Notes: generated by a model not told the origin, from the sequence alone. A DNA stretch of 64,000 nucleotides from Camelus dromedarius (GCF_036321535.1 NC_087436.1:310001-374000), one strand, 5' to 3'; numbered from the stretch's first letter, positions 1-64,000 are shown. Program-made: numbers and translations.

Positions 1-3000
1 CCACGTGTGCGTCTTGGGAAGATGCAGAGGCTTCAGGGTCCGGGAGGGGAGACTCCTCAGAAGCTGGAGTTGGATTGGGGAGTGGGGAGAAGGTAGTCAC
101 ACTTACCTGTGACGGTGGGAAAGAGTCCTAGGGAGTCCCGACCCTACCGGACTCTCTTTCCCATGAACAGAAGGCAATTAGACAGAGGATCTGAGATGAA
201 AAGGGATGGGTGCTGTGAGGGGAGCCAACCTGGAGAATGGTGCTTGGACAGTTCTGGAATAGTCTTCCTGCAAAATAGAGTTAAAAAAACACAGACTCTA
301 AAGAATATTGACAGTAACTGAGGAGGAGGCAGTTTTTCTGGCCTCCTAAGAGTAAGTCATGTATACGGGGATACACAGAAGAATCGGGCAGTCTCTTGCG
401 GGGGCTTGATCCTTACCAGAGGCAACAGTGCAAGTTTAAAGGGGGAGAAGGGCAGCGGAGGTAAACTAGCCAGGCCTTGTGTCAGGTACCAGTTGGCCGC
501 CCTAATTGCGTGTTCCATTCACATCCATCCCTCCCATGTGGGCGGTGGCAGCCCCCTTTTGCGGATTGACAAGACTTCTCAGAGGGGTTAAGGTATCGGT
601 CCATTTAGCGGCTAGTAAATGCTGTAGCAGGATTCAAGCTGGGCCTTGTCAGACTTAAAGGGCATGTTTTATCTACTAATTCCGGTACCTCCCTGTTGTA
701 CCTGGAATGGTGAAGTGGGTCAGTTTTGGAGCCTTTCAGAAAAAGTGTGATTTAAGTGCCTCAGGACTGTTTCACAAAGCTCAGTGTTCTTTGATTGTTC
801 GGAAACAAAGCAGTGCTTTATGCCCCACCGATGTAAGGTCTTACTCCTTTGACGATGACGTGGTTGCAAATGACATACAGGTGCAAAACCAGACTTAGCA
901 GCTTCTGAAGGGAAACTCTCCAGTTCTTCCTTGATCCGCTGTCTTCTGCGGGATGTAACTCTGCTGCAGCGTAAGCCTGAGTTTTCCGTATGGATTGAGG
1001 GTTTGATAACCAATGTTAACATAAAACGATCAGATGGAGAAAATCGACGTTGGCAATTTATTTTTGGGTATCATTAGACAAGATGCACTATCGGTTAATG
1101 GCCCATATAACGTATGAAATTGAGTACAGAACATTGCATTTCTTACTTTCTACTTAGAACTGTGTTCCATTGTAAGGTTGTCTGCTTTGAAAATTCAGCT
1201 CAGCCACTAGGGCGCCTGTCAGTGTGTTGGTGTGATTGCATTTACACAGTGCATGTAATCTGGGCTTCCTCAACCCCAAACACTCCAGTGCAGAATCATG
1301 GGCTGTAGCAATCACTTAGTTATACAAATACTTCTGAAACTATGATTCCAAAAAAAAAAAAAAAAAAAAAAAGGAGAGAGAGATTGCCTTTATCATAGTT
1401 CCTTTGGAATTAAACTGCAAACTGTTGTTGAGCAGTTCTGGCTTGCTTTATATATGAATATATACATTTCTTTGCATGTAACTTGGTTTTTGGACTAGAA
1501 CACCAAGCTCTTGTTTTCCATGAGCCACAAAAATCGTAGCCAAATGACACACGTATGAAACATTTTATTCCTTTTTTCTGAGAAAGGATACTTAAATTTT
1601 GAACTTAGTCTCTGATTTTGGTTTTAGCTCTTCCCTACCCTCTTGTCATCTCACTCCTATTTCCCACGTGGCCTCCAAGATGTCATGGTCTCAAAGGAGT
1701 GGGTGGACAAACACCATTTGGTCACCATGCAGTGCTGCTCTAGATGAAGCCCAGCCCAGAACTAAAGGACATTATCAGAGAGGACTTCCTGGAAGAAATG
1801 GGCTCTACATACAGTTCTGAGGACAGAGTAAGAGTCAGCCAGGAGAAGGAGTCAAGAAGGTGGCTCAGGTGGCAGGTGAAGCCCGGGCAGAGACATGGAG
1901 GCTTGTGGGGTGGGGACCCGGGGAAAGTGCCCTCTGTGGTCCAGGGTGAATGGTGCCCTTACTGGGGAGGACAATGGAGAGGACCTGGGAGGAGGGCTTT
2001 GGAGGAGCTTGGGTTTTACTAAAACTGACCAAGGAGGCAGTGAAGGGTGTCAGCAGTAAGTGACTCTCAGGAAAGGTACTTCTGGTTTTGCTTCTGATAT
2101 TCTACAGAAAGAAGGGCAGGGATGGGCGAGAGCAGGTAAGTCTCTCCCTTTGAGACCCATCCCGTCATTCATTTATTCATAACATGCGCAGTTCTGAGTG
2201 TCTAGGGGAGAGTGAGCCCACATTAATAAGCAAAATTTATTAGCTTCTTGGGAGCTTAGAAGTGTCAGAAGTTGACTTAGCCTAGAATGTTCTAGGAACA
2301 GAGGAACAAAGTGCCGAGGTTGGAGGGAGGGAAGGCTTCCTTGAGAAATAGTCAAGATGAGCCTGGAGGCAAGTGGAAAGTAGGAGCAATTCAGGGGTCC
2401 CCTGAGGTCACTGGGGACCATGGTGCTGAGGTGAGGCTTGGCGAGCAGGGTCAGGGTCAGGGGTGGGGCTAGAACTCTACCAGGGAGCCTCTGAAGTGTT
2501 TGAAGTGGGGGTTGATGTAATCAAATTTGTGCTTTGGGAAGGCTGCCCTGGCTATGTGTGTGTGTGTGTGTGTGTAACGGGGAAGAGGGGGAGGGTGCCA
2601 CCAACTGGGGGGGGGCATTAGAAGACCATTCTCAGGCTGGGAGGCGACCAGTGGGAGAGGGACGTCGGGGTTGCTTGGGGAAGTCAGGGGCAGTATGGAT
2701 GCCGGATTTCCTTTTGGGGAGGGTTTGTTAGCGGGGCCGCCCTAGCGGCACCTTGTGGCTGGAAGGAAACAGATGGAGGTCGCCAGGTGGACTTTCCACT
2801 TCTCTCCTTCCCTGCCTTGCCTGATGATCTTAGCTCAGCCAACATTTGGAACAGAAGAGGTAAGTTCTAGGGTAGCCCAGTACTTTGTTCCGCTCGTTCG
2901 AGTGAGATCTGATAGGACATAAGTTTGTGTTCAGATCTGCATGTTCACTTAGCTAGAAACGTCCCGTCTTTTGGATTTCCATAGGGGTTTTTATTCTTGA

Positions 3001-3116
3001 TAAAGATTGCTTTCTTGGTGAGAGGAAATTTAATACAGCTGTTGTTTTTCTCAAAAAGAAATCATATCTTTTAAGAAATTTAGCATTCAAAAGAATCAGA
3101 ATATTTAAAAATGATA
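1..3116 (+). repeat. Segmental duplication block, copy A (direct repeat of 60897-64000)
   Basis: Colinear match from ccacgtgtgcg (1 vs 60897) to aatatttaaaaatgata (3116 vs 64000). About 34 substitutions plus one 3-nt gap in the 300 bp compared by hand (721-1022), with more indels elsewhere. Both ends are cut by the window edges. Confidence 0.97.
2554..2575. repeat. (TG)n microsatellite; paralogous tract at about 63439-63463
   Basis: Directly visible. Confidence 0.9.
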
Positions 3117-3749: not shown

Positions 3750-3860
3750 GGTACATGTTGGGTTTATACCTGCAGGCTGGGATGCTGAAGTACTCCCTGA
3801 TCCATCACCGTTATGTCCTGGAGCTGCTCCGGTCAGTGAATGATTTTCTGTGGCTTGGAT
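3750..3860 (+). pseudogene. TRAPPC9: TRAPPC9 exon 3 remnant (5'-shortened, 111 nt)
   Basis: caacag|gg...ggat|gtaagg. Translates [36 protein letters not shown] versus TRAPPC9 [35 protein letters not shown]. Confidence 0.92.
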
Positions 3861-11912: not shown

Positions 11913-11939
11913 CGGTACATGAAGTTCTCATTGATCCAG
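11913..11939 (+). pseudogene. TRAPPC9: TRAPPC9 27-nt micro-exon (exon 5) remnant
   Basis: ttttctttcttccag|cggtacatgaagttctcattgatccag|gtacat. Reads VHEVLIDP versus TRAPPC9 AQEVLIDP; exactly 27 nt. Confidence 0.9.
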
Positions 11940-19956: not shown

Positions 19957-20077
19957 GTGCCCTCACCTCCAGTGACATCCATCCAGACACCAGCACTGAC
20001 ACTGGCCGTGCTCAGAACTGCCTCAGCCCTGAAGACACAACTGACAAATAGAAGGGGGCCACGCCCTGTTACAGCAG
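19957..20077 (+). pseudogene. TRAPPC9: TRAPPC9 exon 6 remnant with premature TAG
   Basis: ttgcag|gt gcc ctc... reads [39 protein letters not shown] versus [41 protein letters not shown]. TAG at 20049-20051; GT at 20078. Confidence 0.93.
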
Positions 20078-25088: not shown

Positions 25089-25625
25089 AGTTACCACGTC
25101 AAAACTAGTTCTGCTTCCTGAATGACAGGCCAGTAAATCGGGAGATGAGGTGTTAGAGCAAGGAATACTGACTTTATTTGAAAAGCTGGCAGACCCAGAA
25201 AATGGCATACTGATATCCTGGAGAACCCTCTTCCCCAAGTCAGAATTCAGTCTCCTTTTTTACTAAAAAGGGGCGGGGATGTTGTTGGTTGTTGCAAACT
25301 TCTTGCTGTACGAATTGATTTCCTTGGAATCCTTTGTTCTTGCAGCTGTCCATGTGGGTCAAATCATGGTGCCCCTGTAAAACCTCCAAAAATAAACAAA
25401 GTTTATTCTGTTTTACTACTTGCCATCTATATATAAGTGCAGAAGAGCTAACATCCTTAAAGATCAGAGCCCGGAGAATAGTCTCTCCTGGATATTTCAG
25501 GCTAAAGGCAACTTTCTTTTACAAAAGCTCCAGAGCTAACAAGTCTGAACCTAGAAAACAGGGCAGAGGTTTAAAGCCAAAGGAACACATCTAATATGGA
25601 GTCAAATTTGTTCTTTTCTATTACA
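25089..25625 (-). mobile_element. Solo ERV1-type LTR
   Basis: 4-bp TSD ATTT at 25085-25088 and 25626-25629. Minus strand starts TGTAATAGAAAAGAACAAAT and has AATAAA near 25175. Its 5' end is shared with 49811-50294. Confidence 0.8.
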
Positions 25626-26787: not shown

Positions 26788-26911
26788 TGTAAGAATGCCG
26801 GTGACTCAGTTAGAAGCATGCTTCAAAGCTGTCCGTGTCTTTGCCATCCAGAAGCGGAGCCTGGGAGCTTCCGAATTTCTCCAGAATGCGGTTTACATTC
26901 ACATTCGATAG
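26788..26911 (+). pseudogene. TRAPPC9: TRAPPC9 exon 7 remnant (2-nt deletion, terminal CAG>TAG)
   Basis: cctgcag|tgtaagaatgcc...cgatag|gtgagt. Reads [41 protein letters not shown] versus [42 protein letters not shown]. Confidence 0.94.
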
Positions 26912-36477: not shown

Positions 36478-36660
36478 AGTGTCTTTCAACTTGGACCAAC
36501 TCGGGACGTCTCCACTGGGTGAGTACTTTCCTGGTATGTTTCCACCAGCCCAACTTTGGACGTCTCCTCAAGTTGGGTGTTTCCTGTTATCTTTCAACCA
36601 GGCCCCACCCAGCATGTCTCCACTGGGTGGGTAATTTTCCCCCCAGTATCTTTCAACTGG
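36478..36660. repeat. Degenerate ~55-bp tandem repeat, about 3.3 units, in the ERV leader
   Basis: Recurring tRtctttcaac...gacgtctccactgggtg...tttcc. Confidence 0.75.
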
Positions 36661-36876
36661 AGGGCCAGGTACCTGGATACACTGCCAAATAAAACTCAGG
36701 ATCATCAACCAATATGGGAGATCCTAGAACCAGAAGAGACTCACTCAAATTCATCTGGACTCCCCGAGGAGGCAGACGGGCACAAAGGGCCACTGCTGGT
36801 ACCAAGGCTCCAGTTCCTCGGAGAGTTCAGCTGGAGAGAAGTCTGCTCTGGGTCCTTTCATGGTTTCCAAAACTTT

Positions 36877-37367
36877 TGACTGAAATACATGTGCAGCCTA
36901 AAAGTTAAGAGTTATGATTTATTTGGCAGGAGGACTTGACCTGGGATGACAGCCTCTCAGATCTCTCTGAGGGACTGCTCAGAAGAGGTTCGGGAGGAAC
37001 TAGGATATATAGGAGCTTTACAACAAAGACCGGGAAGTTGGAACAATAAAAGATTGCTTGTTATCTAAAGAAAGCCAGGTATGTCAAGTTCAAGAATTTA
37101 GTGCTTTTCTATGTATGGGAGGAAGCAAACATTTGGACTCACTGAATTCCTTCTTTAGACAAACACCTAGCTATCTAGGGCTAATATCCTGTCCTTTCTT
37201 ATTCTGAGTCTGCTCAGAGGGCACCGTTGTGAGTGGCTGCAGAGGCTGGGCTGCAGGCCTGTACTTGCTGGGGTGTGTTGGCAGCCGCTGATGACTTGGT
37301 TTCAGCATTCTTTGTTTACTTACATGGTTGCAGTATTTTCATTCACATTGTAATAATTTCTTTCACA
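36877..37367 (-). mobile_element. 5' LTR of the provirus
   Basis: Paired LTR. Followed on the minus strand by TGGAAACCATGAAAGGA (about 36853-36869), which resembles the tRNA-Arg PBS TGGCAACCACGAAGGGA. Splice donor AG|GTAAG on minus near 36455. Confidence 0.92.
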
Positions 37368-39671
37368 GACTGACTATGGATAATCTGCAACCTTGGAAAG
37401 CAACCGAGAGGGAATTACTGCAGGTACCTTCTGCTTTAATAAGCTGCGTGCAAACATAAACATGGAGGAAGGATACAAAATGATTTGGTGGTGTAGGGAA
37501 GGCTTTCTGCACATTACAGGAGAAGGCAAGGCAGATTTCCTCTCCTTTGTGGACAGGGACGTGATTCCACCTTTCTTTTCTGTAGTGGTTTCTGAGAACA
37601 ATTTATGGTAATTAACCAACATTGACAAAAGTTGGAACACAATGCATTTAAGAGCTGGCCAGCTGGAAATTGTGTATTGGACAGGTGGATTTCATAGGCA
37701 AGTGGTCAGGTGGATGGGAGAGAGATGGAGCCCACGTCTGGGCCCAGATTCAGGTTTAAATCGCCATTTCTTCACCATAGGGCCTTGGAATAGAATGTAA
37801 CCTCTCTTAACCTGTTGGTGATTCTGTGAAATGTGCATGATAATACTCTTTTGTTCCTGGGATTGTTGTAAGTTGTAAAGAGTATTAGAGCACACATGAA
37901 GCACTTAACACACTGGCACTTAGCAGTGTTCCCTGTGTGCGGCCGCCCCGCTTCGCGTGTGTCAGAGCCGTAAAGACAGCATGTGTCTGTTGAGGGCGCA
38001 CTGGTGGCCCCTTGAATACGTTGTGAATTTGGTGATTTCTATTAATCCTTGTAACTCTGTGTGCCATGGGCAGTTATTTTCATGGACAGATGAGGAATCT
38101 CAGGGTAAAGAAGACTGTGTAATTTGCCCAAAGTCAGACCATAATTTTGGGTGCAGGTGCCTCGATTTGGCATGGGCCCCTGGGCCTTCTACCCTCTTCG
38201 TTAAGCACCAGAGCCAGATGTGGGGTCGACTGTCACCCAGCACAGAAAATCCAGCAGGTAGCAAGACACACCTGGCCCTGTGCTCCTTGAGCAAAACTCC
38301 GGAGGGGAGGCAGTTACAAAAGTGATAAACATAAAAACAGATGACTGCAAACTGTGATCAGCTCTGAGAAGGAAAGGAACAGGCCTCGCAGTGCAGCGCT
38401 GGGATCTTTCTAGTCGGGGCTGCTCTGGGGCGTTCATCTCAGATAAACAAGCTCTGCTGCTGCACCAAGGCAGGAAGGCAGGGTGCTTGTGACCAGGTAG
38501 ACTGGGCCTCGTTGATCATTCTCATTCCCCATTAAGTGGCAGCTGTCACTGTCACTTACCTAGTAAACAGATGTTGGCCATAATCATCATGCATTTTGCT
38601 AGGTAGTTTTATTGGCCCCACCTTTGAGATGAGGTCATTGAAGCTGGGAAATTTGCTGCATGCCCGTGATCACCATGGAAATAACCCCTCTTGTCTTTCA
38701 ACTTAGACTGGTGTGGCTCTCATGCCCCAGCCCTGTGAATGGCATCATGTAGCTTCTCCCAAGTGGCCCAAATGACTGACATTGATTTTCTTAATTCATA
38801 GGAAATGGTATGTGACAATAGGAGAAAAAGATAGTAAGAAATTTTTTGGAAAAATAGAAAAAAAACCATTTCTTCCCCAGCTGGGGAAGCGTACCCTGTG
38901 TCACTCACCCCACTCACTGCCTGGCACCTCCTCCCTTCTGACTCCGTGTTCAGAAGCCACTCTGAGCCTTTGAAGAACATTTTGCCTCATGACACTCTTG
39001 ACTAGGACCTGCGACCTCTCTGTCCCTGGTTAACTCTCTCTTCAAAGCCATTTAAATTTTATGCAGGCTCATCTGCTCAGATGTAAGAATAGCCTCTTTA
39101 AAACGTCTTGATGCAGCTCCTTAATGAAGATCTTGAGAATGAAACCTAGCCAAAAGCAGGGAAGTATGCACATAGTGACCGTAAACTCAGCACTTTGTGA
39201 AGTTCAGAATCAGTTGGGTGGGAGACTCAGGAAAGACTTTTTTTAAGGTAGCAAGGGTAAAGTGAAAGGACTCAGGCTGTGTGAGACTGAAACATCTCGG
39301 TCCCAACCAGCAAGGCACCTGCGTTCACGATGGTGTGTGGGGAGTGCAGAGTTCTCACAAATAAAGAAGTGGTGGGATCGGAGGGAGGACAGTTAGGTTT
39401 TTACTGGGGAAGGAAAATGTGGGCTGAACATTTCCTGGTTGAACAAGAGGACTGTGACATGATGTGCTTGTATTTTGGAGAGAAGGGTTTTGTGGGGATA
39501 GGCCTAGGGAGAACTCTCTCTGGCTGGGGAGTCAGCACAACAGAGAACCACAGAGAACTGAGCAGACCCCAGGCCCCTGCTGGGGGAGGGGCTGCCCGCC
39601 AATTCGAGCCCTGGGGGCTGCTTCTGTCCCTTAGCTGGGTCCTCAGAGCTCCCTGCAAAATCCAGTTCTGT

Positions 39672-40831
39672 TGATACAAAAAAAAACATGGGGCATGAGA
39701 AGGGCTGTGCCCCAGGCTTTGGTTGAGCCCCTGGAATGTGCCCCGTCCGATGTGGGTCCCTGGTTTCATGCAGGAAAGAATTCAAAACCAAGCCACTGTT
39801 GAGTAAAGGTAGATTTATTCAGATAGATTCATTGAAAGGCAAGAGAAACACCACGAGGTTTTGGGGTTTGATGCTCTGATTAAAAGTAGGTACTGGGATA
39901 TCAAAATTGTAGAATAGATAAACAAGATTATACTGTACAGCACAGGGAAATTTACACAAAGTGTTATGGTAACTAACAGAGAAAAAAGTGTGACAATGAG
40001 TGTTAATATGTGCATGTATGACTGAAAAATTGTGCTGAATACTGGAATTTGATACAACATTGTGAAATGATTATAAATCAATAAAAAATGTAAAAAAAAA
40101 AAAAAACAATGTGAGGAAGTTTTCAAAGAATGGTTCCAGATATAAAACCCTTTCTGAGCATTTTCTCTATTTTGTGTGAAATGCATTTTTACTTGAAATT
40201 TGACTATAGTTGATCTTAATTCTTTCAAATATGGCAGGGTTTTTTATTTTTTTCAATTTCTTCTTTCTCTTTTTTTTTGTTTTTTTGAGCATGAAATCTG
40301 TTAGAACTATGGCTAAAGCGTAAACAAAGCGTTGCTGAATTTTAAGTGTCATCTGTTGGCTGTAATGCTTAGAAAACGTCTGTATTTTGAAATAAAAATC
40401 TTTAATGCTAACTAAAAAAAAAGTAGGTACACACTCCACAGACAGAGTGTGGGCCTTCTCCAAAGAGGGAGAGGGAGGGGTGCCCGCGAGGTGGTGCTGT
40501 GTTGCTGGTTTTCATGGGCTTGGTGGTTTCATATGCTAATAAGTAGAAGGACCTGCCTAGGGGCAAGGGGTTGGAATTCCCAGGGAGTTGGCCATTTCCC
40601 ACCATTTGACCTTTTTTGGCTAGCCTTGGGACTGCCATGATGCCTGGGGTTGTGTTATTCACCATGTTACTATTACAGTGGGTGTAAAATAATGCTCAAG
40701 TTCTGCTAGAAGTTAAATCTCTTCATCCTGAGCCTCAAGGCCTATTGGGGGTTGAATGCTTCACCATTTTGATGTTAATTACTGTGGCCTTCCTTGAATG
40801 GCTGTGCTCTGGCCCCTTCCATCCTGTCTCA
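39672..40831 (-). mobile_element. Solo LTR interrupted by an L1 insertion
   Basis: TGATAC...GTCTCA termini and 4-bp TSD CTGT (39668-39671, 40832-40835). Minus-strand AATAAA near 39815. Confidence 0.75.
39894..40418 (+). mobile_element. 5'-truncated L1 3' end with a ~305-bp 3'-transduced segment
   Basis: TSD AAAAGTAGGTAC at 39882-39893 and 40419-40430. L1 3' UTR with poly(A) to about 40107, then non-L1 sequence, AATAAA at 40391, and a second poly(A). Confidence 0.85.
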
Positions 40832-41094
40832 CTGTGGTGACACAGAGAGAGCAAAGGCCAGGCCCTGCTTGTGCTCCTGCATTTAACAGGGGGAGGGGTG
40901 GTGTGGGCTGAGGATGACTCTGAGTGGTGAGAAGGATGTTTCAGATTTTCCCACGTGGGACATGGGGACTTGCCAGCAGCCACCGCAGATTTATCTCACG
41001 GGCATTATCGCTTGTGTCACTCATCTTTTTCTATTTTTTTTTAAGTATTTAATCGAAATTAAATATCAGATATCTTTCATAAAGAAATTTCTCT

Positions 41095-41228
41095 TTTCCT
41101 TTTCTTTGGGGCTCTTTTTGGGGGTTAGGCAATTAGGTGTATTTATCTGTTAGTGGAGGCCCTGGGGCTTGACCCCAGAACCCCGTGCATGCTAAGCACT
41201 CGCTCTACCACTGAGCTCTACCACCACC
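41095..41228 (-). mobile_element. Vic-1-type SINE
   Basis: aggcaattagg...ctggggcttgacccca...gtgcatgctaagcactcgctctaccactgagctc. Confidence 0.8.
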
Positions 41229-41579
41229 TCATCATCTTTTTCTTTTTGCTTTAGCTGCCAAGAATCTTACAGCTGAATTTCTAGTCGGCCTTTAACACTT
41301 ACCCTGACTTCATGGCATCCATTTTTATGACTTTACCTCCCCCTGGTTTCATTTAAGTATTGAATCTCCTTTTTCTCTTCACTGTCACTTTTGTCTTTTT
41401 GTTGTTATGGTTGTTAAGCTGTGTTTAAAAAATTGTTTAAATTCTCTTTTAGCAGGAAGTTGAAAGTAAATATATATGTAAACAAATTTATCACACTTAA
41501 ATGCTTTTATACATTCTAAGCTGTTTAGTAGTTACTTAAAAACCGAATGGAATATTAAAGGGAAAACATTTTAAAATCA

Positions 41580-41765
41580 CTTTTTTAATTTTTTATAAAG
41601 GTATAGCTGATTTACAATATGATATAAGTATCAGGGTGTTAAATAGATGCACAATTTTTAATGTTATGCTCCTTTTATAGTTTTTGTAAAACATTGGCTA
41701 TATTCCCTGTGTTGTAAGATACATCCCTGTAGTGTGTTTATGTTACATGGAGAAGTTTGTATAAG
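41580..41765 (-). mobile_element. Short L1 3' end
   Basis: T-rich tail, then gtatagctgatttacaatat...aacattggctatattccctgtgttgta. Confidence 0.7.
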
Positions 41766-42259
41766 AAAGCTGGTTATCGCAGAGTCTGGGGCGTGGCTGT
41801 GTCTGACCCAGGTTCACGCTCACCCTGCCTGTCAGAGCCCAGGCCCTCACTCCTGCCTGCAGGGCCGCAAGTGGAGGCAGGTCTCATCAGCGCTGGCACC
41901 ACCCCCTGAGTGGCAGTGACAGCAGTGACTGTCTGTGGACATGCAAATTGTTGTTCCAGGAGCTTTACATGCATTTCTGCATTTAATAATTAAAGCCCTC
42001 CTGTGAGGAATCGTTTTATGTTTTTAATGAATAATACATTTTATTTTGATTTTGATAGAATTCAAACCTCCGGAAAATTTATAGGAATAGTACAATAAAC
42101 GCTTAGATACAGTTCACCTAAAAGGGCACAATTAGCCCTTTTGTGTCTGGCTTTTTTTAGCATAAAGTTTGAAGGTTCACCCATGTTGTAGCCTGAATCA
42201 GTACTTTATTCTTTGGTTTGATAATATCCTTTATCTTTTTGTTCGTTTTTGGTCTATTT

Positions 42260-43670
42260 AAACATATTTTAATTGAAGTCTAGTCAGTTTATAATGCTGC
42301 ATCAGTTTCTTGTGTACAACACAACACTTCAGTTATATAGGAACATACCTGTATTCATTTTCACATTCTTTTTAAACATAATTTACTATAAGATACTAAA
42401 TATATTTTCCTGTGCTATACAGTATAAATTTGCCGTTTATTCTATACATAGTCGGTATCTGCAAATCTTGAACTCCCAATTTATTCCTTCCCATACCCTC
42501 TCCCCTCTGGTAACCATAGTTTGGTTTCTATGTCTCTGTGTCTGTTTCTGTTCTGTAGATAACTTTATCTTTTTGTTTGTTGGTTGTTTTATTTTTTTTT
42601 AGATTCCACATGTGAGCGATCTCATATGGTATTTTTCTTTCTCTTTCTGGCTTACTTCACTTAGAATGTCATTCTCCAAGTCCATTCATGCTGCTGCAAA
42701 TGGCATTAATTTATTATTTTTTTATGGATGAATAGTAGTCTAATGTACAAATATACTACAACCTCTTTATCCAGTCATCTGTCAGTGGACATTTAGGTTA
42801 TTTCCATGTCTTGCTATTGTAAATAGTGCTGCTCTGAACATTGGGGTGTAGGTGTCTTTTTGAATTAGGGTTACTTCTGGATATAAGCCCAGGAGTGGGA
42901 TTTCTGGGTCATATGAGAGGTCAATTTTTTGTCTTTTGAGGAACATCTATAGTGTTTTCCACAATGGCTCCACCAAACTGCATTCTCACCACACTGTAGG
43001 AGCGTTCCCTATTCTCCACAGCCTCTCCAGCATTTATTGTTTGTGAACTTCTGAATGATGGCTATTCTGACTGGTGAGAGGTGATACTTGATTGCAGTTT
43101 TGATTTGCATTTCTCTGATAATGATATTGAGCATTTTTTCATGTGCCTATTGGCCATTTGTATGTTTTCATTGGAGAAATGTTTGTTTAGGTCTTCTGCC
43201 CATTTCTGGATTGAATTGTTTGTTTTTCTTTCTTATCAAGTGTAAAAGGTGTTTACATATTCTGGGAATTAGGCCCTTGTCAGTTTAATTCATTGCAAAT
43301 ATTTTCTTCCATTCCATAGGTTGTTTTTTTGTTTTGCTTACTGTTTCCTTTGCTGTTCAAAAGCTTGTAAGTTTAATTAGATCCCACTTATATATATTTG
43401 CTTGTATTTCTATTGCTTGAGTAGACTGCTCTAGGAGAACATTGCTGAGATGTATGTCAGATGATTTGCCTATATTTTCGTCTAAGAGGTTTATAGCGTC
43501 TTGTCTACATATTTAAGTCTTTAAGCCATTTTGAATTTATTTTTGTGTATGCTGTGAAGGAGTAGTCTAACTTCATTGATTTACATGCAGCTGTCCAGTT
43601 TTCCCTACACCATTTGCTGAAGAGGCTATCTTTATTCTATTGTATGTTCTCACCTCCTTTGTCAAAGATT
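42260..43670 (-). mobile_element. Younger lineage-specific L1, ~1.4-kb 3' end, nested in the older L1M
   Basis: Well-preserved antisense ORF2 C-terminal and 3' UTR motifs (ttagattccacatgtgagcgatctcatatggtatttttctttctctttctggcttacttcacttagaatg). Confidence 0.88.
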
Positions 43671-43812
43671 CAAAGACCAAAACTTTGTGGGACTATGCTT
43701 GGTAATTTTGTTTATACATTCATTGATGGATGGATATTGTTTGTAACTTTTGGCTACTATGAATATTGATGTACAAGTTTTTTGTGAGAATATGTTTTCA
43801 TTCTTTTGGCTG

Positions 43813-43953
43813 TAGAGTTGGCCCACCTTATGTGTAGTTTCCACTTCATGGATCCAGATGGCTGATTGTAAAGAGACTCGAACATCCTTGGATTATGGTA
43901 TCCAGGGTGGGGGTTCCAGAAATCAACCCCCCGAGGATACTGAGGGATGGCTC
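43813..43953. mobile_element. Internally deleted MER2/Tigger-like DNA transposon fossil
   Basis: Ends resemble the MER2 termini (agttggccc...; ...ggatactgagggatggct). Confidence 0.6.
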
Positions 43954-44389
43954 AATATGTAGGAGGGGAATTGCTGAGCCATATAACTCTAAACTTTTGA
44001 GGAAACACCAGACTTCTGCAAAGAAGCTGCACCATTGTCCCTTTCCAATGGCCACATATAAGGTATCTCTTCCTCCTGAACGACACTTGTTATTGTCCAT
44101 GTTTGATTATAACCATCCTATTGGGTGTAAAATGAGATCGCATTTTGATACTGATTTGGCTAGTGATGCTGAGCATCTTTTCATATGCTTATTGGACGTT
44201 TGTGTATCTATTTAAATCCTTGGCAAATTTAAAAATTGGGTCGATTTTCTTTGTCTTGTTCAGTTGTAAGCATTTGTTATATATCCTGGATACTAGTCTC
44301 TTATTAGATATATGCTTTGCAAAATTTTTCTCCTATTCTGCAGATTCTCATTTCACTTTAGTTTTCTTAAACATTAAAACAATTTCTTT

Positions 44390-44472
44390 ATAGGGGAGGT
44401 AATTAGATGTATTGATTTATTTTATTTTTCTTGCTAAGCACGCACTCTATCCCTTAGAAACAACCTTCCCCT
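44390..44472 (-). mobile_element. Partial Vic-1-type SINE
   Basis: ggggaggtaattag...gctaagcacgcactcta...cttcccc. Confidence 0.65.
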
Positions 44473-47400
44473 GTAATTTCACTTTCTTGATGATGTCCTT
44501 TGTAAGAAAAAGGTTTTAACTTTGATGAAGTCCAGTTTATCTGCCTTTATCTTCTGTCACTTCTGCTCTTGGTATTGTATCTAGGAAACCAAAACCTATC
44601 CTAGGACCACAAAGATTTATACTGTGTCTTCTTTTAGAATGTTTATAGGTTTAGTTATTATGTTTCTGTCTGTGATCCATTTTGAATTAATTTTTATTTG
44701 TTATATACATTATGGGGGGTCCAGATTCCATATTCATTCTTTTGCCTGCAGATACCCAGCTGTCCTTGCACCATTTGTTGAATAGACTATTCTTTCAATG
44801 GAGTGTTGTTGGCACTCTTGTGGAAAACTGACTGTAAATGTAAGTTTTTCCCCTCTGGGTTTTATTGTGTCTCATTGACTTATTTATCAAAACTTATGCC
44901 AGCACTATACTGACTTGAGTACTATAGCTTTTTAGTAAACTTTAAAGTGAGTCCTCCAACTTTGTTCTTCTTTTTCAAGATTGTTTTGTCTGTCCTGGTC
45001 CCCTTGCACTTCCATATGAATTTTGGTATCAGTTTTTCAATTTTTGAAAAGAATTCAGCTGGAATTTTGATAGCGATTCCACTGAATTTGTAGATCACTT
45101 TGGGGAGTCTTAACATTTTTAACAATATTGTCTACTATTCCATGAACATGGGATGCCTTCCATATATGTAAATCTTTTAAAGTTTTCTTCGGTGATACTT
45201 CAAAATGTTCAATGTACAAATCTTGTAAATTTTTGTTAAATGTACCTCTCATTTTATTTTTAATGCTGTTGTAAATGGAAAGGCTATGCTTCTTCAGGCG
45301 GACTATATATCAATTTGTTTATTTCTAGGATTCCTACACAACAAATACCCTAGGTTTAAATTTGCTACATAAATCTATCCACATCTCTTCCCAACCCTGT
45401 GTTATAAGAAACCAAGACCCAAGTTAGGCTACATGAACACCTATGTGGAAGTGAGAAATGAGAAATGAGACCCTTGGGTGGGGCTTTGTGTAGATGATAC
45501 TGACAGCTTATTCAGGATGGCTTTATCTTAATTTCTTTTAAACAACTCTTCCGGTGTATTTAGTCAGATACATTAAGAACATGCCCTTTTGATGTGCAGA
45601 GGAGCTAAGATTATCATTTTCAAATAATTTCTAGTGAGAGTGTTGTACTTGAAACCCAATTTGCATCAATCTTTGAAGATTTATGTTTCAGGAGCTTTGA
45701 CTAAACTACACATGTTTATTCAATAATGACAACTAAATGCTCAAGCAACATGTAAGAGTTTGAGCAAACTGCCCCCGGCCCATAGTGCTGGTTGGCTGCA
45801 GCTGTAAATGGAGTCAGCGCTTACCTCTCCCTGTACGCTTGTGCTGATCTGCTCAAAGGGTTTCATCCAACAGTTTGTCTGTAGTCTGTTGGACAAAGCC
45901 ATAAAACGTTGATTTAAGTTTGCTGGAATGGAATATATTCTTATTAATATTAAGTAAGCACATATTGAGCGCTTACTGTATGGTGGAATTGTCCCTCAGC
46001 CTCACATGAATATTATTTCTCTTAAAACCTCACATATTTCCTTGTTATTCTCAATTTACAGATAAGGAGACTGAGAATTAGGTCTTCTCTCTTTTGGGGG
46101 GAGCTCATTATCAATGACTGGAAGTTGTGAGGAAAAAGATATTGATTCATCCTGAAAAAACATTTTTTTGAGAGTCAGCAATGAAGAGGGTGACCACTGA
46201 AGAAGGTGATCATTGTTCGAGTGAGATGAGCCCCAGGTTGTACGGAGTCAGCATCCTTGTCTTGGTCATGGCCAGTGTAGAGCTGCGTTGTGGGTGAGGT
46301 GGCGTGGCCGTGCAGGGAATGAGGATGCCGGGCCATTGGGCTTTTCTCAGGCCCAGTGGGGCTTTCTCTTAAGGGCAGTGGACCGTCATTGACAGATTTT
46401 AAATAGGGGAGTAGGGTGCTCTCATAGATCACTTTTGTATTGTAGAATGCTGGGAAACATTTAGAAGGCTCGGCAGGAGGTGATGTGATGAGTCAGAGTA
46501 GGGTGGCTGCGAGGTGTAGCAGTGTTCAATTTTCAAGTGGTTTTCAGTCCCATGTTTGTGGCTTAGTAGCCGTTTCACTTTGGATGACGCACTCAAGGAA
46601 GTGAAACAATTTATCTAATCAATTAAAGCAGTGACGTACCGACTTCCCAGGACTGCTGTGGAGATCCAGTGAGATAACATGTTCACAGTGTGCAGCATGG
46701 ACCCCAGCACAAAGTCAGTGCTGAGTGAGTTCCAGTGAGTACCTGGTAGGTCAGGTGTGGGTGGTGGGGCTCGGTGACTGAGGAAATCTGGGCCCTGAAG
46801 GATGGGTCCAGTCACATCTGTGAGTGATGGGCCTGAGCTGGGGGAGGCAGAGAGACCTTGCCCCCCAACCAGTGGCCCTGGGCAGGACGGCTATGGGAGG
46901 AGATCCGTGAAGTCAGCTCTTTGCAGGTGGAGTTGGAGGTGCCCTTGAGACATCTAAGTGCAATGTCACGAGCTCAAAGAGGAGGTCTGGGCTCAGGCTG
47001 TGCATTTTCCTATAATCTCAATCCCTGAGGACGCCGAGGTATTGATCACTGAACGTGAAGACATACTTTACAGGACAAGTGAATAGTAGTATCATCTCTG
47101 TCATGAAAGCTCACGTCTCTTTATTCATCACCCACTTTCCTAATTGGGTACTTACAGGGCGGTTCTTCACCGCCCTCCCCTGGGCTCTGGCTCCACATTA
47201 AAGAGCTGGTGGGCCACCCTCTTTTCCAGAAGAAGACACATTTAGCTGGTAGCCTTCTGTACCTTGCCAGACGTAGAATTTCAGTTTGTTGTTTTAATTC
47301 TATTTTCTGTTGGCCATCTCCTGACAGGAGAGAAGTTCTACCTCATGGTCATGTTTCAATTAGCTGTTACTGAGAATTGCTGCTCTGATCCATTATGTAT

Positions 47401-49337
47401 GTATTTTATTAACTTTGTAGAGTATTTCTCATTTTTCTGTCTTTGCCCTTTAATTTTGTATGCCATTTCAAGGTTCTATCCTATTTGGGGCCTTATTTTT
47501 TTAATTAAACAGTATCTGTTAGTTAAGAAAAGAAAAGCAAAGAAAAAATGCACATGATACCTAAATTTAGAAAATATCTAGTGTGTTTCCTGTCTCGGCA
47601 ATGGAGTGATATAGAAACTCGTTAAAACCTTCATTACATAAGTTCCTTAAAATGCTGATTAAGAAATAAAACCTTCCTTCCTCATCTTTCCAGCTGCACA
47701 GCTAATTGCCAAGAAAGTGAGGGGAAATACTCAGAATCCAAGACAAACAAGAAAGGGATTCTGGGAAGTAAGCGAGCATTAGAAGCGCTTGGGGGGCCGT
47801 TTGGCTCCTGAGCTGGGTTTCAAATGCCCTGACAGGAGGGCAGGAGTTGAGCCCCAAGCCTCTCACAATGGGAGTTGAGTGGCTGATCTTATGTAAGGCC
47901 AAGCAGATCCTGAGAAGCCTGGTTTACTAAAGGGTGAACTAAGAAAAAAAATTCCTCAAGGCAAGAAAGTAAGGAAAGTCAATTTTGTTGGGAGAGGGGA
48001 AAATAACAAATCCAAAGTAGGGATATAATTTAAAGCTGTTCTGGCATGAGAGTGACCACAAACTCCTGGCAGAAAAACACAGCTACTCCTGGAATGAGAA
48101 ACTGTGTTTTGAATGGATCAGTGAACCGCCATTCCGAAAAAGGCCTCCAGAGTCTTGTGGATCAAGATACTGGACCGCAAACACCTCTCTTCCAAGGTCT
48201 CATTCAAATAACCAGAAAGGTTTTAAAGGAAAGAAGCCATAATCATAGTTCTATTTATTGACATTACTGTATGCTAGGAATTCAGAGGTGACTATGGAGT
48301 CACCTCTTTTATGGACCTCACTTTCTGTTTGGGGAGACAAACTGACATAGTTGGGGAGCTTGGTGGAGGGAGTTGTTAGTCTGTTGCAATTAGCTAGGAA
48401 AGGAGATTAAGAAATCAGTGAAGAGTGGGTGAACTTTTTAGCTGAGGAGAGTCTTGTTCAGTTGGCTTTTAATTTCAGGCTCGATGAGTTTTCACTGGAG
48501 GGAACAGATCTTATGGAGGATGGACTTTGCTGAAGCCTCTTTAGAATGGACAAGTGAACTTGGACAAAGACAGTCAAATCTGTGCAGACATTGAAGTTCA
48601 CTTGAATGAGCTCCATCCCTGAGCCAAAAATAGGACAAATATTCAGCACTCCTTGAGGACAGAGGAGTGGTTTTTAAGGTTCTCCAAGAATGAATCCCAG
48701 GGAACTCTGATGGCCAGTTGTCAAACTGTGACTTTGTTCTTTGGACGGTGTACCCACCAAGTGTATTGGAATTTTATAGGTTTCCATTTCTCTTTAATTC
48801 ATGTCAGGTGATGAGGACGTGGTCACAAGCATTTGACACCTTGTCGAGGTGACTTTGGGTACCTGCCTAGAAGCGCAGGCACAGCTGAGGATGCATCATA
48901 CGTCTTGCCGCCCTTCCCGTTCCCTGGCTCCGTGATCACGGCAGAGTGGTTCCTTGTTGAGCTGTCCGTCTCCTCTGTGACATCATAACCCATGAAAAGA
49001 CTGGAGCATATTAACTTGGCTTTGTTAAAGTCAAAGGAACAGATCTAATATGGAGTCAGATTTGTTCTTTCCTACTTCAGTAGTACCATGGAGAAGGCAC
49101 TTTGGGCAGCTTTTTATAGGGTCCTGGAGGCTTTCTCTCTCAGCCTCTGGGCGCCTCTATAACAAACTCTTCATAGATATCTGGCTTGCTGGAAATCACT
49201 CCGACTCTTTTGCCCTGAAAATGTGTTCTGTTTATAACCCTTCCCTACACCTTGGAAAAAACTCAATAAAAACTCAGTGGGTTTTACACAAACCAAGGGC
49301 AGGGGTGAGGGATAGCATGTTACAATTTTATAAAATT

Positions 49338-49361
49338 AATAATTAATAATAATAATAATAA

Positions 49362-49407
<46 letters not shown>

Positions 49408-49426
49408 TAATAATAATAATAATAAT
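49338..49426. repeat. (AAT)n microsatellite
   Basis: About 90 bp of AAT with a few interruptions. Confidence 0.95.
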
Positions 49427-49810
49427 GGAATACTTAAAACAGCACTGGGCACATAGGAGAGAGTCAATAAATGGTTCCTGGCTTAAATCAAAAGTGATGG
49501 TTCAGTGATTCCATGGCTGCTGTATTTGCTGTGCTAGTTACTCCTTTGCTCCATTACAATTTTTTTTACTGAAAAAGAAATACATGCATGTGGTTAAAAA
49601 AATTCAAACAGAGCACAAAAATACACAAGTGAAAGAAGTTTTCCCTCATCCTCTGTTCTTTCAGCCCTCCCTGGAGATGCCACTGTTTACTAATCTTTGT
49701 GTGATTTTCCAGATATGCTATGCACATTCCCACCTATGTATGTAAATTCCTTTAAAGTTTTAGTTATATTTAACTTAAAGTGATGCAAATACTGAAGTGG
49801 CTTCTTCCCC

Positions 49811-50294
49811 GGTAACAGAAAAGAACAAATCTGTCTCCATATTAGATCTATTCCTTTGATTTTAACACTGTGCTCTGCCTCCTAGGCTTCATCTTGCTTG
49901 TATAAAAATGTTGCCTAGAGCCTGAAATATACAGGAGAGCCTATTCTGAAGGCTCTGCCCTTTAAGGATATTTAACACTTTTTCATTCATAAAAAGATTA
50001 CAAGTTGCAGAATAGAAAATAACGTTTGTTTTGCTGGAGGTTTACAGAGATTTGACCCAGGCAGATAGGTGCAAGAACAAAGGATTCTAAAAACAAAGAA
50101 TTCCTACACCAAGAAGTTTGCTACAACTAAGCACGTAGGAAAGGAGCCTGAATTCTGACTTGGGGAGATGGTTTTCCAGGACATTAGTTTGCCATCTAGG
50201 TCTACAGAAACTTGCTATTCCATGCCCCAACACCTGGTCTCCGAACTTATTGGCCTGTCCTAAACTGAGGAGAATGAATTTGGACTCGGTAACA
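49811..50294 (+). mobile_element. Solo ERV1-type LTR upstream of the CpG island
   Basis: Starts (G)GTAACAGAAAAGAACAAATCTGTCTCCATATTAGATC, related to the LTR at 25089-25625, and ends GGTAACA. Imperfect TSD CCCC/CTCC. Confidence 0.75.
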
Positions 50295-50939
50295 CTCCTA
50301 TCTACCTAGCAAGCTGGGCACTGGAACTGAGGACATCTTTCCCACACCCAGGGAACTGCTGTGAGCCCTTGATGGTTCCACTAGGGTGGGGTGTGGTTTA
50401 CCCAGGAGGGATAGGGACTATGCACCAACACTGAGGCAGTCTGCTCTGTCTGGGGCTCTGATCTACCTCCCGCTCCCCACCAGCCCAACAACTGGGACAG
50501 TGGAGCCAAGGCAGAGATCGTGCCTGCCTGTTTCCCAGCGTGTAAAAGCTGAATATGTACTCTTCCCAAGGTAGTTCTGAGCGACAACACCTTCGGGCGC
50601 TTGGTTCCCAGAGCAACAGAAAACCCAGCTCTGCGTGGGGGCAACGGGTGTGATCCCTGTAGGGGTTCTGCAGAGGCCTTGGCTGGAGGGCTGGACCAGG
50701 GAGGTAAAACTTGAGCTGCGGGCCTTGAAGTGTTAGAGAAGGGTACAGAGGCAGGACTGCCTCCTCCTTTGTGGTGCCCCCAGAGGTAAAGATTTTTCTC
50801 CCCATCTCCGCTACTCCCCTCCCCTCTCCAGATCCCTCCCTTCTCTCTGCACCTCCTGTCCATCTGTTTCACTCCACTTTCCCCTCCTCTCCTCCTTCTC
50901 CCATCTTATCCCTCCATTGCTGCCCCAGCTTTTCTCGCA

Positions 50940-51620
50940 GAACCAAGAGGATCCCTGGTCCTCCTGCGCATGCGAAGTCGGTGCACGCTGGACCGCCGGG
51001 TTGGAAGCCCCAGCTCCAAGCCGGGGATCGGCCCCAAAGGCTTCTCAACTCTGTCTCCCTGTAGGCTTTGGCTCCTTCCAGAAGCCTGGGCCTCTTGCTG
51101 TGGAAGTGCAAGTTGGGGTCTCCCGGGAAAGGGGTCAGGCGGCTGCGGGAGGGCGGTCTGCGTGTCACAGCATGCGAGGGCATGAGTCAGCGTGTGTTCA
51201 GCTGAATTCCTTGGACCAGGCACCTCTGACCGCACCACCTGCCCCGGCGCCCCGGCCACAGCTGCCCAGGGCCAGGTGTGCACCTGCCGCCTCTCGCCCC
51301 AGCCGGGCTCCCCTCAGTCCGCGGCTGGCGTCCCCTTCCCCTCTCCCGCTCGTGAGTCCTCTCCTCCCGGGCTTCCTCTCCTCGGCTGCCGGCCCGTCCC
51401 TGCCCCTGGGAGGGCTGTGTCCCGGGCAGGCGGGGTCTGCGGACCCAAACGGGGGCGGGCGGCTGGGGCTGGAGCTGGCCTCCTAGAGGGGCTGCAGCCC
51501 GCGTCCACACACCGCCACTTTCCCTGCCCCGCGACCCCGGGGCTCCCCTCCTCTCCCTTTCCCGCTCCCTGAGGACAAGCTCAGCAGCGTGGGTGCTGCT
51601 CCCCGGGCTGAGAGTCTCCA
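50940..51620. promoter_or_regulatory. CpG island / probable promoter and first exon of unit B
   Basis: Only long GC- and CpG-dense stretch in the window. NRF1-like TGCGCATGCG at 50965-50974, AP-1 TGAGTCA at 51183-51189, GC boxes. Lies about 4 kb upstream of TRAPPC9 exon 2. Confidence 0.75.
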
Positions 51621-51710
51621 GCTGTAAAGCCCAGCTTCTCCTGGTGGAGTCAGGAAAAGGGAGCGCCAGTGCTGAGCGAGCTTCCTTCTCCTCCCTCAGT
51701 GTTTCTGCTC

Positions 51711-51719
51711 CAGGTAAGT
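51711..51719 (+). promoter_or_regulatory. Consensus 5' splice site CAG|GTAAGT at the 3' edge of the CpG island (putative exon 1 donor)
   Basis: Perfect donor consensus, junction after 51713. Confidence 0.6.
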
Positions 51720-55782: not shown

Positions 55783-56352
55783 GGCCTGCAACACGAGCAT
55801 CCCTGACTACGTTCAGAGTGCTGAGGACTACAAGACTCTCCCCGTGGTGGTCCAAGCCGTTGGGATCATCTCAGAGGAGAATTTCTTTTGCATTTATAAG
55901 CAAATCTCCTTGGTGAGCCGGATCATCCCCTGCGGCTCCCAGTGGGCACTCTGTATCTACTATAGGCACCACTATGCACCCGAGAATGGGTGGAGCGAAC
56001 TCCAGACCAACCGCAAGGTCGTGGGCCTTGTCACCATTATCGACTGCCTCTTGGCCAAGGCCTTCGATAAGCTCCACATGCAGAGGAGCTGTATGGCACC
56101 ACGCTTAATGACTCTCAGCTCTTTGTCTTTGTGCTGCATGGGGAGGTAGCCGAGCAGACACGCACCGACGTGGCGTTCAATCTACAAGGACTGCAGTGTG
56201 GCGAAGAGGATCAAGGGCTTCACTGAGTCTCTTTTCATCTCGCTCAAGTCTAAGTGGCTGGATGGGGCCCCCGACAACTCTGGGGACAAGATCCCGCTCC
56301 TCTGCATCCTCTTTGAGAAGGAGGACTTCATGGGACTGGACACAGACTGAAG
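55783..56352 (+). pseudogene. TRAPPC9: TRAPPC9 exon 2 remnant, unit B (start codon ATG>ACG, frameshifts, stop)
   Basis: ctctctgcag| then 10 nt of UTR, then ACG at 55793. Reads [36 protein letters not shown]...[23 protein letters not shown] then ag|gtaatt, versus [36 protein letters not shown]...[25 protein letters not shown]. First frameshift near 56084. Confidence 0.96.
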
Positions 56353-60896: not shown

Positions 60897-63800
60897 CCAC
60901 GTGTGCGCGTCTTGGGACGATGCAGTGGCTGCAGGGTCCAGGGTCCGGGAGGGGAGTCTCCTCAGAAGCTAGAGTTGGAGTGGGGAGAAGGTAGTCACAC
61001 CCATCTGTGAGGGAGAGAGGGAGGCCTAGGAAGTCCCCACCCTACTGGACTCGCTTTCCCATGAACAGAAGGCAATCAGACAGAGGATCTGAGGTGAGAA
61101 GGGATGGGGGCTGGGAGGGGAGTCAACCTGGAGAATGGTGCTTGGACAGTTTTGGAATAATCTCCCTGCAAAATAGAGTTAAAAATTCTCAGACTCTTAA
61201 GAACATTGATGGTGACTGGGGAGGAGACAGTTGTTTTTCTGGCCTCCTAAGGGTAAGTCATGTATCCGGGGACACACAGAAGAATCAGGCAGTCTGTTCC
61301 GGGGGCTTGACCCTTACCGGGGGGAACAGAGCAAGTTTGAAGGGGGAGGAGGGCAGCGGAGGGAAACGAGCCAGGCCCCGTGTCAGGTAACAGTTGGCCG
61401 CCCTACTTGCGTGTTGCATTCACATCCATGCCTCCCAGGTGGGTGGTGGCAGCCCCCTTTTGCAGATTGGGAAGCCTTCTCAGAGGGGTTAAGGAATTGG
61501 TCTGTTTTGCGGCTAGTAAATGCTGTAGCAAGATTCAAGCGGGGCCTTGTCAGATTTCAAGAGCATGTTTTCTCTACTAATTCCGGTACCTCCCTGTTGT
61601 ACGTGGAATGGTGAAGTGGGTCAGTTTTGGAGCCTTTCAGAGAAAGTGCAACTTATGTGCCTCAGGACTGTTTCACAAATCTCAGTGTTCTTTGATGGTT
61701 CGGCACCGCAGTGCTTTTCGCCCCACAGAGGTAAGGTCTTACTCTTTTGACGATGACGTGGTTGCAAATGACGTACAGGTGCAAAACCAGACTTAGCAGC
61801 TTCTGAAGGGAAACTCTCTAGTTCTCCCTTGATAGACTTTCTTCCGCGGGATGTAAATGTGCTGCAGCGTAGGCCTGAGCTTTCCGTATGGAGTGAGGGT
61901 TTCATATATAAAGTTAGCATAAAACGGTCAGATGAAGAAAATCGACGTTGACAATTTATTTTTGGGTTTCACTAGACAAGATATACTATCAGTTCATGGC
62001 CCTTATAGTGAATGAAATTGAGTACAGAACATTGCATTTCTTCCTTTCTATTTAGAGTTCTCTTACTGCATAAGGCTGCCTGCTTTGGAACATCAGCTCC
62101 ACCACCAGGGCGCTGTCTTTGTGTTGGTGTGATTGCATTTACACAGTGCATGTAATCTGGGCTTCCTCAGCCCCAAACACTCCAGTGCAGAATTACGGGC
62201 TGTAGCCATCTCTTAGTCACGCAAATACTTCTAAAATTATATGATGCTAGAAAAGAAAAAAGAGAGAGAGAGAGACTGCCCTTATCAAAATTCCTTTCAA
62301 TTCTAACTGCAAACTGTTGTTGAGCAGCTCTGGTTTCCTTTGGATATGAATATATACATTTCTTTGCATGTAACCTGGATTTTGGACTAGAACACCAAGC
62401 TCTTGCTGTCCACAAGCCACAAAAATAGTAACCATATTGCATACGTGTGAAATATTTTATTCTTTTTTTCTGAGAAAGAATCCTTGAATTTGGGACTTCA
62501 GCTGTGATTTTTGCTTTTTGCTTCTCCCACCCCTCTTGTAATCTCTCACTCCTTCACACGTGGCCCCCAAGAGGTCGTGGTCTCAAAGGAGCAGGCAAAC
62601 ACCCAGTTGGTCTCCATGCAGTGCTGATGTAGAGGGAGCCCAGTCAAGACCTAAAGGACATTATCAGAGAGGACTTCCTGGAAGAAATGGGCTCTATATT
62701 CAGTTGTGAGGACATAGTAAGTGTCAGCCAGGAGAAGGCATGAAGAGGATGGCTCACGTGGCAGGAGCAGCCCGGGCAGAGGCCTGGAGGCTTGTGGGGT
62801 GGAAACTCGGGGAGTGTGCCTTGTGTGGTCCAGGGTGGAGGGTGCCCTGCTGGGGAGGACACTGGAGATGACCTTGGGTGGAGGGCTTTGGATGAGTTTG
62901 GGTTTTACTAGAACTGACACAGGAGGCAGTGAAGGGTGTCAGCAGGTAGTGACCCTCAGAAAAGGTACTTCTGGTTTTGCTTCTGATATTCTACAGAAAG
63001 AAGGGTCGGGATGGGTGAGAGCAGGAATGTCTGTAACTTGGAGTCCCACCCCGTCATTCATTTATTCATTACACGAGCACTTCTGAGTGGCCAGGGGAGA
63101 GAGAGTGGACCCACATTAGTAAGCAAAATGTATTTGCTTCTTGGGAGCTTAGCAGTGTCAGAAGTTGACAGCCTAGAATGTTCTAGGAACAGAGGAACAA
63201 AGTGTGGAGGTTGGGGGGAGGGAAGGCTTCCTTGAGAAACAGTCAAAATGAGCCTGGAGGCAAGTGGGAAGTAGGAGCAGGTCAGGGGGCCCCTGAGGTT
63301 ACTGGGGACCTGGGAACTGTGGTGAGGCTGGGTGAGCAGTGTCGGGGGTGGGGCTAGAACTCCACCAGGGAGCCTCTGAAGGGTTTGAAGTGGGGGTGAT
63401 GTAATCAAATTTGTGCTTTGGGAAGGCTGCCGTTGCTCTGTGTGTATGTGTGTGTGTGTGTGTAGCGGGGAAGAGCGGGAGGGTGCCACCAACTGGGGGG
63501 GGTCATTAGAAAACCATTCACAGGCTGGGAGGTGACCCGTGGGAGAGGGGCGTCGGGGCTGCTTGGGGACGGCAGGGGCAGTGTGGATGACGGATTTTCT
63601 TATGGGGAGGGCTTGTTAGCGGGGCCGCCCTTGCGGCGCCTTTGGGCTGGAAGAAAACAGATGGAGGCCACCAGGTGGACTTTCCTCTTCTCTCCTTCCC
63701 TGCCTTGTGTGATGATCTTAGCTCAGCCAACATTTGGAACAGAAGAGCTAAGTTCCAGGGTAGCCCAGGACTTTGTTGAGCTCGTTCGAGTGAGATCTGA

Positions 63801-64000
63801 TAGGATTTAGGTTTGTGTTCAGATCTGCATATACACTCTGGTAGAAATATCGGTCTTTTGGATTTCCATAGGTGTTTTATTCTTGATAAAAATTGCGTTC
63901 TTGGTGAGAGGAAATTTAATAAAGCTGTTATCTTTCTCAAAATAAATCATATCTTTTAAGAACATTAATATTCAAAAAATAGGAATATTTAAAAATGATA
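60897..64000 (+). repeat. Segmental duplication block, copy B (period about 60.9 kb)
   Basis: Same alignment as copy A. Paired ORFs in the track: 707..898/61608..61796, 720..1022/61621..61920, 109..321/61007..61390. Confidence 0.97.

Follow-up and report, generated by a model that had tools for sequence, protein, structure and literature searches.

A decayed, tandemly amplified fragment of TRAPPC9 in the dromedary belongs to a large camelid family of partial TRAPPC9 copies

We analyzed a 64,000-bp stretch of dromedary DNA (hereafter the window) and found that it holds one full period of a head-to-tail repeat, with units longer than 1 kb, built from the 5' part of TRAPPC9. This unit is a member of a large, decayed camelid family of partial TRAPPC9 copies carried on many camel and alpaca chromosomes. 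Judged at the protein level, its members are unprocessed pseudogenes that have been amplified, and we found nothing to indicate that a function maintains them. The best reading of these observations, in which we place considerable confidence, is that duplication, decay, and unequal and ectopic exchange produced a neutrally drifting family with leaky transcriptional read-through.

Anatomy and arrangement of the unit

Self-BLAST aligned the two ends of the window on the same strand (2720 of 3143 positions identical, 24 gap openings, E = 0), with an offset of 60,896 bp between the copies and a match that extends to both window ends (Table 1). An earlier note, written from the sequence alone, had described these ends as diverged direct copies about 60.9 kb apart, and the alignment confirms this. 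Neighboring units are 86.5% identical, or 88.4% when gaps are excluded, and differ by a K2P distance of 0.126 over 3077 ungapped columns. Segmental duplications are strictly defined by at least 90% identity between copies; neighboring units fall below this value, and younger subfamilies elsewhere would pass it.

Table 1 Features of the 64-kb window
Feature	Position	Strand	Description
Left overlap copy between neighboring units	1..3116	+	86.5% identical to 60897-64000; lies between exons 2 and 3, hence positionally TRAPPC9 intron 2
Exon 3 remnant	3750..3860	+	Frameshifted; 5' part gone; GT donor kept; parent aa 212-243, 72% identity, E 3e-8
Exon 5, 27-bp micro-exon	11913..11939	+	AG/GT splice sites intact; matches EVLIDP segment of parent P0078
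Exon 6 relic	19957..20077	+	In-frame stop; aa 296-336, 61-63% identity
Solo LTR-like repeat	25090..25624	+	69% identical to inverted copy 49812-50293
Exon 7 relic	26788..26911	+	Last TRAPPC9 exon of the unit; 3' end encodes first codons of P0187
Tail with tail-to-head unit junction	26912..50690		Repeat-rich; no Pfam family above cut-off
Decayed LTR element	30140..37368		Two 490-bp terminal repeats, 86% identical (K2P 0.136); 4-base target-site repeat
LTR-like repeat	49812..50293	-	Directly upstream of GC-rich 5' region; same adjacency in alpaca model P0225
Decayed promoter / first-exon region, GC-rich (probably TRAPPC9's own)	50400..51713	+	3' end is a GTAAGT donor; serves as first exon in family models
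Exon 2 relic	55783..56352	+	ACG for start codon at 55793; frameshifts; stops
Right overlap copy	60897..64000	+	Next unit's repeat of 1-3116 begins here; self-BLAST

Mapping full-length mammalian TRAPPC9 proteins onto the window revealed a permuted order, in which residues 212-243 (3764-3859), 296-336 (19956-20078) and 342-380 (26801-26917) precede residues 2-200 (55796-56368). The protein order itself was computed; the exon numbers 2, 3, 5, 6 and 7 were assigned from the human TRAPPC9 gene structure. The permutation, likewise proposed in the earlier note, is also seen in the dromedary RefSeq model P0187 (XP_064350356.1, on a 63.8-Mb record), which agrees with the window's splice of exon 7 to exon 2 at 129 of 130 amino acids. 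GenBank model P0189, on a 61-kb contig, belongs to this subfamily too but differs a little more. Because RefSeq models are collinear with their assembly, another dromedary assembly must carry exon 7 upstream of exon 2 together with the same start-codon loss, and the order in the window is thus not an artefact.

A local two-copy duplication or an assembly error would fit the fact that the overlap visible in the window spans only 3.1 kb. This explanation is largely refuted and can hardly be credited, since a divergence of 12.6% and 24 small indels far exceed allelic difference or error, the exon 7-to-exon 2 order recurs in another dromedary assembly, and dozens of paralogs are present in four species.

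The unit retains five exons, kilobase-long introns and the GC-rich 5' region, the structure of an unprocessed pseudogene. Together with the K2P distance between units, this anatomy bears out the proposal of an old, truncated, intron-containing tandem amplicon of the TRAPPC9 5' end. The more specific claim of a unit with exons 2 to 7 stood for exons 2, 3, 5, 6 and 7 and failed in part: exon 3 retains only its 3' ~110 bp, and exon 4, like all exons beyond exon 7, was undetected in the window even by relaxed tblastn. The disabling lesions are those of a pseudogene: the start codon reads ACG, the frame is shifted, exons 2 and 6 contain stops, and exon 4 is lacking. Within exon 2, we found a family-wide frameshift after about codon 97, a TAG at codon 119, a second frameshift that restores the parent frame, and another stop where the exon ends. 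RefSeq models of other copies, from camels and alpaca, additionally use cryptic exons corresponding to 13993-14170, 14675-14810, 18827-18946, 19515-19690, 25126-25242, 57218-57324 and 57744-57974, which derive from intronic and repeat-derived stretches.

Upstream of exon 2, the best 500-bp window of the 5' region has a GC content of 0.70 and a CpG observed/expected ratio of 0.59; the CpG island of the earlier note is therefore present as a GC-rich region, but in decayed form. This region is probably TRAPPC9's own 5' region. Residues 81-93 of a primate long isoform match 50692-50730 weakly (10 of 13 residues, E 0.13), and three of nine further parent N-terminal extensions gave this same weak match, whereas the N-terminal extensions of six parent isoforms had no match in the 5' region.

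The tail-to-head junction of the unit falls between 26.9 and 50.7 kb, within the repeat-rich tail. The solo repeat at 25090-25624 is presumably LTR-derived, a label given from its features. The interior of the element at 30140-37368 is AT-rich and lacks a 120-codon frame. The divergence of its two ends (K2P 0.136) is close to that of the units, suggesting that the element inserted near or just before the unit split. Just upstream of the GC-rich region lies a 51-bp inverted pair (49023-49073 and 49817-49867; 92% complementary, 743 bp apart), formed by ends of the same LTR-like family, and its surroundings are a candidate for the neighborhood of the unit junction. About three copies of a 54-bp unit occupy 36482-36637, in the interior of the LTR element next to its right terminal repeat. 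Copies of a tRNA-derived SINE were found at 41154-41225 (minus strand), 55226-55345, 5822-5877, 10955-11022 and 44387-44429; the head of this SINE was the sole Rfam match in the window, with one copy over the tRNA threshold.

Breadth and history of the camelid family

We searched protein databases with exon 2, and all 22 longer proteins and all 33 proteins of similar length proved to be TRAPPC9-like or unnamed models from Camelus or Vicugna. Because word-based searches favor close relatives, absence of the family from other mammals is likely rather than proven. These camelid-only matches support the lineage specificity claimed earlier, but the family is not confined locally, as it occurs on many chromosome-size camel and alpaca records. 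Including cluster members, family proteins were placed on 24 alpaca, 7 Bactrian, 13 dromedary and 6 wild-camel records, of which 17, 7, 4 and 2, respectively, exceed 20 Mb; the tally is by record length, and the dromedary and wild-camel counts pool several assemblies. For three large alpaca records, accession numbers adjoining those of small scaffolds suggest that they may be unplaced, gene-poor sequence. A metagenome scan for parent or paralog DNA yielded 143 pattern matches and no confirmed locus, and a PDB sequence search with exon 2 returned a single match, by chance.

Multi-unit arrays are implied by the family models themselves. When 112 family proteins were mapped to the window, at least 26 passed from a downstream exon into an upstream exon, although a good number of these models are isoforms of one another or nearly identical, and hence not independent events. 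The multi-unit array that the earlier note had raised as a possibility is accordingly very likely. Models P0050-P0052 start in exon 7 and continue through the 5' region, exon 2 and exon 6 to a further exon 2, an order that takes a minimum of three consecutive units. Across the 112 models we counted 31 splice patterns. Fifty-five alpaca proteins lie on 23 records, six of which carry two or three diverged subfamilies, and individual subfamilies reappear across different records. These recurring sets suggest that blocks of several units were copied together.

Such recurrence could also reflect a structural role, in which a gene-derived macrosatellite with higher-order organization is kept in pericentromeric or short-arm heterochromatin. 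Neighboring units differ by 12.6%, yet certain copies from separate records show no difference over 91 residues, and the subfamily sets recur together; moreover, PMC13751797 describes camelid satellite blocks common to 16-20 chromosome pairs. We regard this explanation as very improbable. No satellite is present in the 64-kb window, whose tandem repeats number seven and are all small, and higher-order copying can arise without function.

We next consider the relationship of the copies to the parent gene, a comparison that the earlier note had proposed. In a protein tree of 67 rows and 91 columns (61 copies and six mammalian parents; bootstrap values not fully settled), all 61 copy rows grouped together in a single clade (support 100/100) whose stem measures 0.26 changes per site, whereas the six parents barely differ. 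The copies have in common a one-codon gap, a four-codon gap and the frameshift after about codon 97. These lesions and the long stem indicate that amplification came after a period of decay. A clade with 97/94 support holds camel and alpaca copies together, and recent expansions are separate in each lineage. The mixed clade places the beginning of amplification before the camel-alpaca split, which is put at 11-25 million years in PMC13751797. Since the local rate may be unusual, we assign no clock date to the amplification. Among the alpaca copies, 16 proteins agree fully over a stretch of 91 residues, and 15 of the 16 fall in a single row. A further dromedary protein, P0198 (55.7-Mb record), keeps several parent residues that are lost elsewhere and carries the family frameshift; too short for the tree, it is possibly the earliest-branching copy.

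Coding constraint, expression and substitution spectrum

To assess constraint, we used 55 copy rows, 88 columns and 79 distant orthologs, after dropping six partial or mis-predicted rows. Changes on the stem did not avoid conserved sites (mean site conservation 0.43 vs. 0.40, p = 0.58), and substitution within the family did not follow conservation (rho = +0.09, p = 0.40). The median identity among the 55 rows was 79%, compared with 76 ± 4.5% under simulated neutral drift at intronic divergence. Over the first 91 residues, the copies are 64-75% identical to parent TRAPPC9. By these protein-level tests, the TRAPPC9-derived frame evolves as neutral DNA.

The frames of the copies end at codon 91 in 8 proteins, at 104 in 33 and at 118 in the 9 identified by the motif used. 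Many copies retain an ATG and 91-118 open codons, in a protein database that takes in frame-bearing copies only. Codon 119 is W, Y, K or stop, depending on the copy, and TAG alone is one step from all of these. With TAG as the hub, the long frames look like revertants selected by annotation. We had considered a founder with a 190-codon frame maintained by compensating frameshifts, and this idea is weakened by the codon-119 pattern.

The earlier suggestion that the array is maintained for something other than TRAPPC9 protein found no support: the frame is neutral at the protein level, and neither other coding content nor an RNA family was found beyond the SINE head. Pfam returned no match for 15 frames, and three matches, all below the curated cut-off, for 269 of 270 stop-free frames of at least 62 codons beyond base 3200; because Pfam misses the TRAPPC9 relics, its sensitivity here is low. 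A hidden gene in a 115/116-codon minus-strand frame present in both terminal copies was rejected, as the frame has no Pfam match and identity between the copies is not raised there.

Transcription of the family is plausible. RefSeq records many isoforms per family locus, and such abundance usually reflects RNA data. By sampled-word sharing, part of 50300-60200 is present in 20 of 24 rows. The shares are 0.49-0.63 for four coded organisms and 0.10-0.43 for six RNA rows, and those of the RNA rows may stem from transcription or from carried-over DNA. The highest RNA shares (0.42-0.43, from sampled words rather than alignments) came from runs labeled as reproductive-system samples.

These possible signs of expression bear on the possibility that the unit is a core duplicon comparable to NPIP/LCR16a, in which a functional, fast-evolving transcript (a lncRNA, a circular RNA or a short peptide from exon 2) drives or selects duplication. 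The surviving promoter-like region and most splice sites, the many isoforms per locus, the reproductive-system word shares, and recent lineage-specific expansions such as that of the 16 alpaca proteins are all compatible with it. Primate core duplicons (PMC7419210) are likewise lineage-specific, serially duplicated and intron-containing, with changing exon structure. The same source describes an open frame kept throughout NPIP, with positive selection, whereas the frames of the TRAPPC9 copies are broken variously, stopping at 91, 104, 118 or later by subfamily, with the ATG lost in the window, and no selection signal was found at the protein level. Conserved sites are not avoided, divergence is at the neutral level, and splicing of the models is heterogeneous. 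We therefore consider a core duplicon unlikely, and favor a neutrally drifting pseudogene family.

One feature, the low transition/transversion ratio between units, does not fit simple neutral decay with the spectrum of the genome as a whole. The two overlap copies differ by 176 transitions and 181 transversions (0.97), and other alignments and isolated mismatches gave 1.01-1.11. Camel SNP ratios are given as 2.29-2.44 and 1.70 in PMC6946651 and PMC11877447, respectively, and the unit pair departs from 1.7 at p = 3e-6. In the LTR pair, the counts of 32:28 do not differ from 1.7 (p = 0.13). Mismatches between units are skewed toward A/T in the left copy (160 vs. 112, p = 0.004), and 33 CpG sites are preserved in the two copies alike. 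A transversion excess is also seen in human segmental duplications (Ti/Tv 1.78 vs. 2.06; PMC10172114), but the shift in the camelid unit pair (about 1.0-1.1) is much larger and involves all transversion classes, not C>G as in the human duplications.

We then looked for this ratio across the family, indirectly, from amino-acid changes in two exon-2 segments. The first segment (44:60, again leaving out the six partial or mis-predicted rows) fits a ratio of 1.0 and excludes 2.06-2.3, with p of about 0.01 for 1.7-1.8, whereas the second (25:20) fits 1.8-2.3, with p = 0.04 for 1.0. A whole-family ratio of 1 is thus supported by one segment and contradicted by the other. Stem changes were richer in transitions than later ones for the first segment (13:1 vs. 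51:66, p = 0.0004) and in the pooled data (p = 0.002), whereas the replicate showed no significant difference (12:7 vs. 28:24, p = 0.59). Because SNP ratios are not old-divergence ratios and a matched camelid neutral control is lacking, we treat the odd ratio as a lead only. The family offers a ready case in which to ask if the mutation spectrum of duplicated DNA embedded in repeats differs from that of other DNA.

A bolder account would have a gene-derived macro-repeat of about 55-60 kb, with higher-order structure, turning over across much of the camelid karyotype from before the camel-alpaca split onward. Its transcription would cross from unit to unit, possibly in germ-line cells, and after amplification it would have entered a distinct transversion-rich regime of break repair or conversion, which would make it a non-primate core duplicon or a hub of ectopic exchange. 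We give this account an outside chance.

Proposed origin, known systems and implications

In the reading that we prefer, duplication followed by neutral drift, a single DNA-level event in the camelid stem lineage would have copied about 60 kb of the TRAPPC9 5' end, from the promoter to past exon 7, introns included. The founder copy would then have decayed in that lineage, acquiring the shared indels and about 20% amino-acid change, before unequal exchange amplified it head to tail. Single units and multi-unit blocks may have been copied between non-homologous chromosomes by ectopic exchange, probably in repeat-rich heterochromatin. Amplification would have been under way by the time South American camelids and camels diverged, and would have continued independently in each lineage. 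Relic promoters and splice sites could give rise to read-through transcripts spliced across units, annotated as 'TRAPPC9-like' genes, while the encoded peptide would drift neutrally.

Parent TRAPPC9 (NIBP, Trs120; Pfam PF08626, PF26251-PF26283) is the source of the unit's exons, intron spacing and micro-exon, and probably of its promoter. Unlike the parent, the unit is limited to the first third of the coding region, without exon 4, has lost the start codon, bears frameshifts and stops, and exists in many copies rather than one. The window unit corresponds to one of the Camelus and Vicugna models named 'trafficking protein particle complex subunit 9-like' (P0187). These models are annotated singly as protein-coding, and we came across no account that treats them together as a tandem family spanning many chromosomes. 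Nor did we find a paper on this family in the literature on TRAPPC9 duplication and on camelid assemblies and repeats, although the VicPac4 assembly paper may mention it.

The closest likeness is to pseudogene-rich blocks in alpaca (NEK10-, ATF5-, FMN2- and ABHD17A-like). In PMC13751797, the authors read them as duplication followed by decay, and the blocks are multi-copy, fragmented gene copies in camelid repeat-rich domains. As described there, they occupy one or two chromosomes, are not simply tandem and have no counterpart in camel assemblies, whereas the TRAPPC9 family is tandem, present in camels and alpaca, and spread over many records. The main text and one text supplement of that source do not mention TRAPPC9.

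These results have practical consequences. Read-through of pseudogenes appears to account for dozens of the camelid models annotated as 'TRAPPC9-like' protein-coding genes, and short reads from one family copy will be mis-mapped to others. Camelids are known for a frozen karyotype, and a multi-chromosome duplication family common to camels and alpaca provides a substrate for ectopic exchange. Neither TRAPPC9 nor POFUT2 is known to have its true locus on camel chromosome 14. In two dromedary GWAS papers (PMC10357240, Table 2, and PMC8027435), SNPs at chr14:31.1-31.4 Mb point to TRAPPC9 as a candidate, in one case beside POFUT2, and the listings also include hits within the first 100 kb of several chromosomes. 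The chromosome 14 hits may therefore be amplicon copies and may reflect mis-mapping among them.
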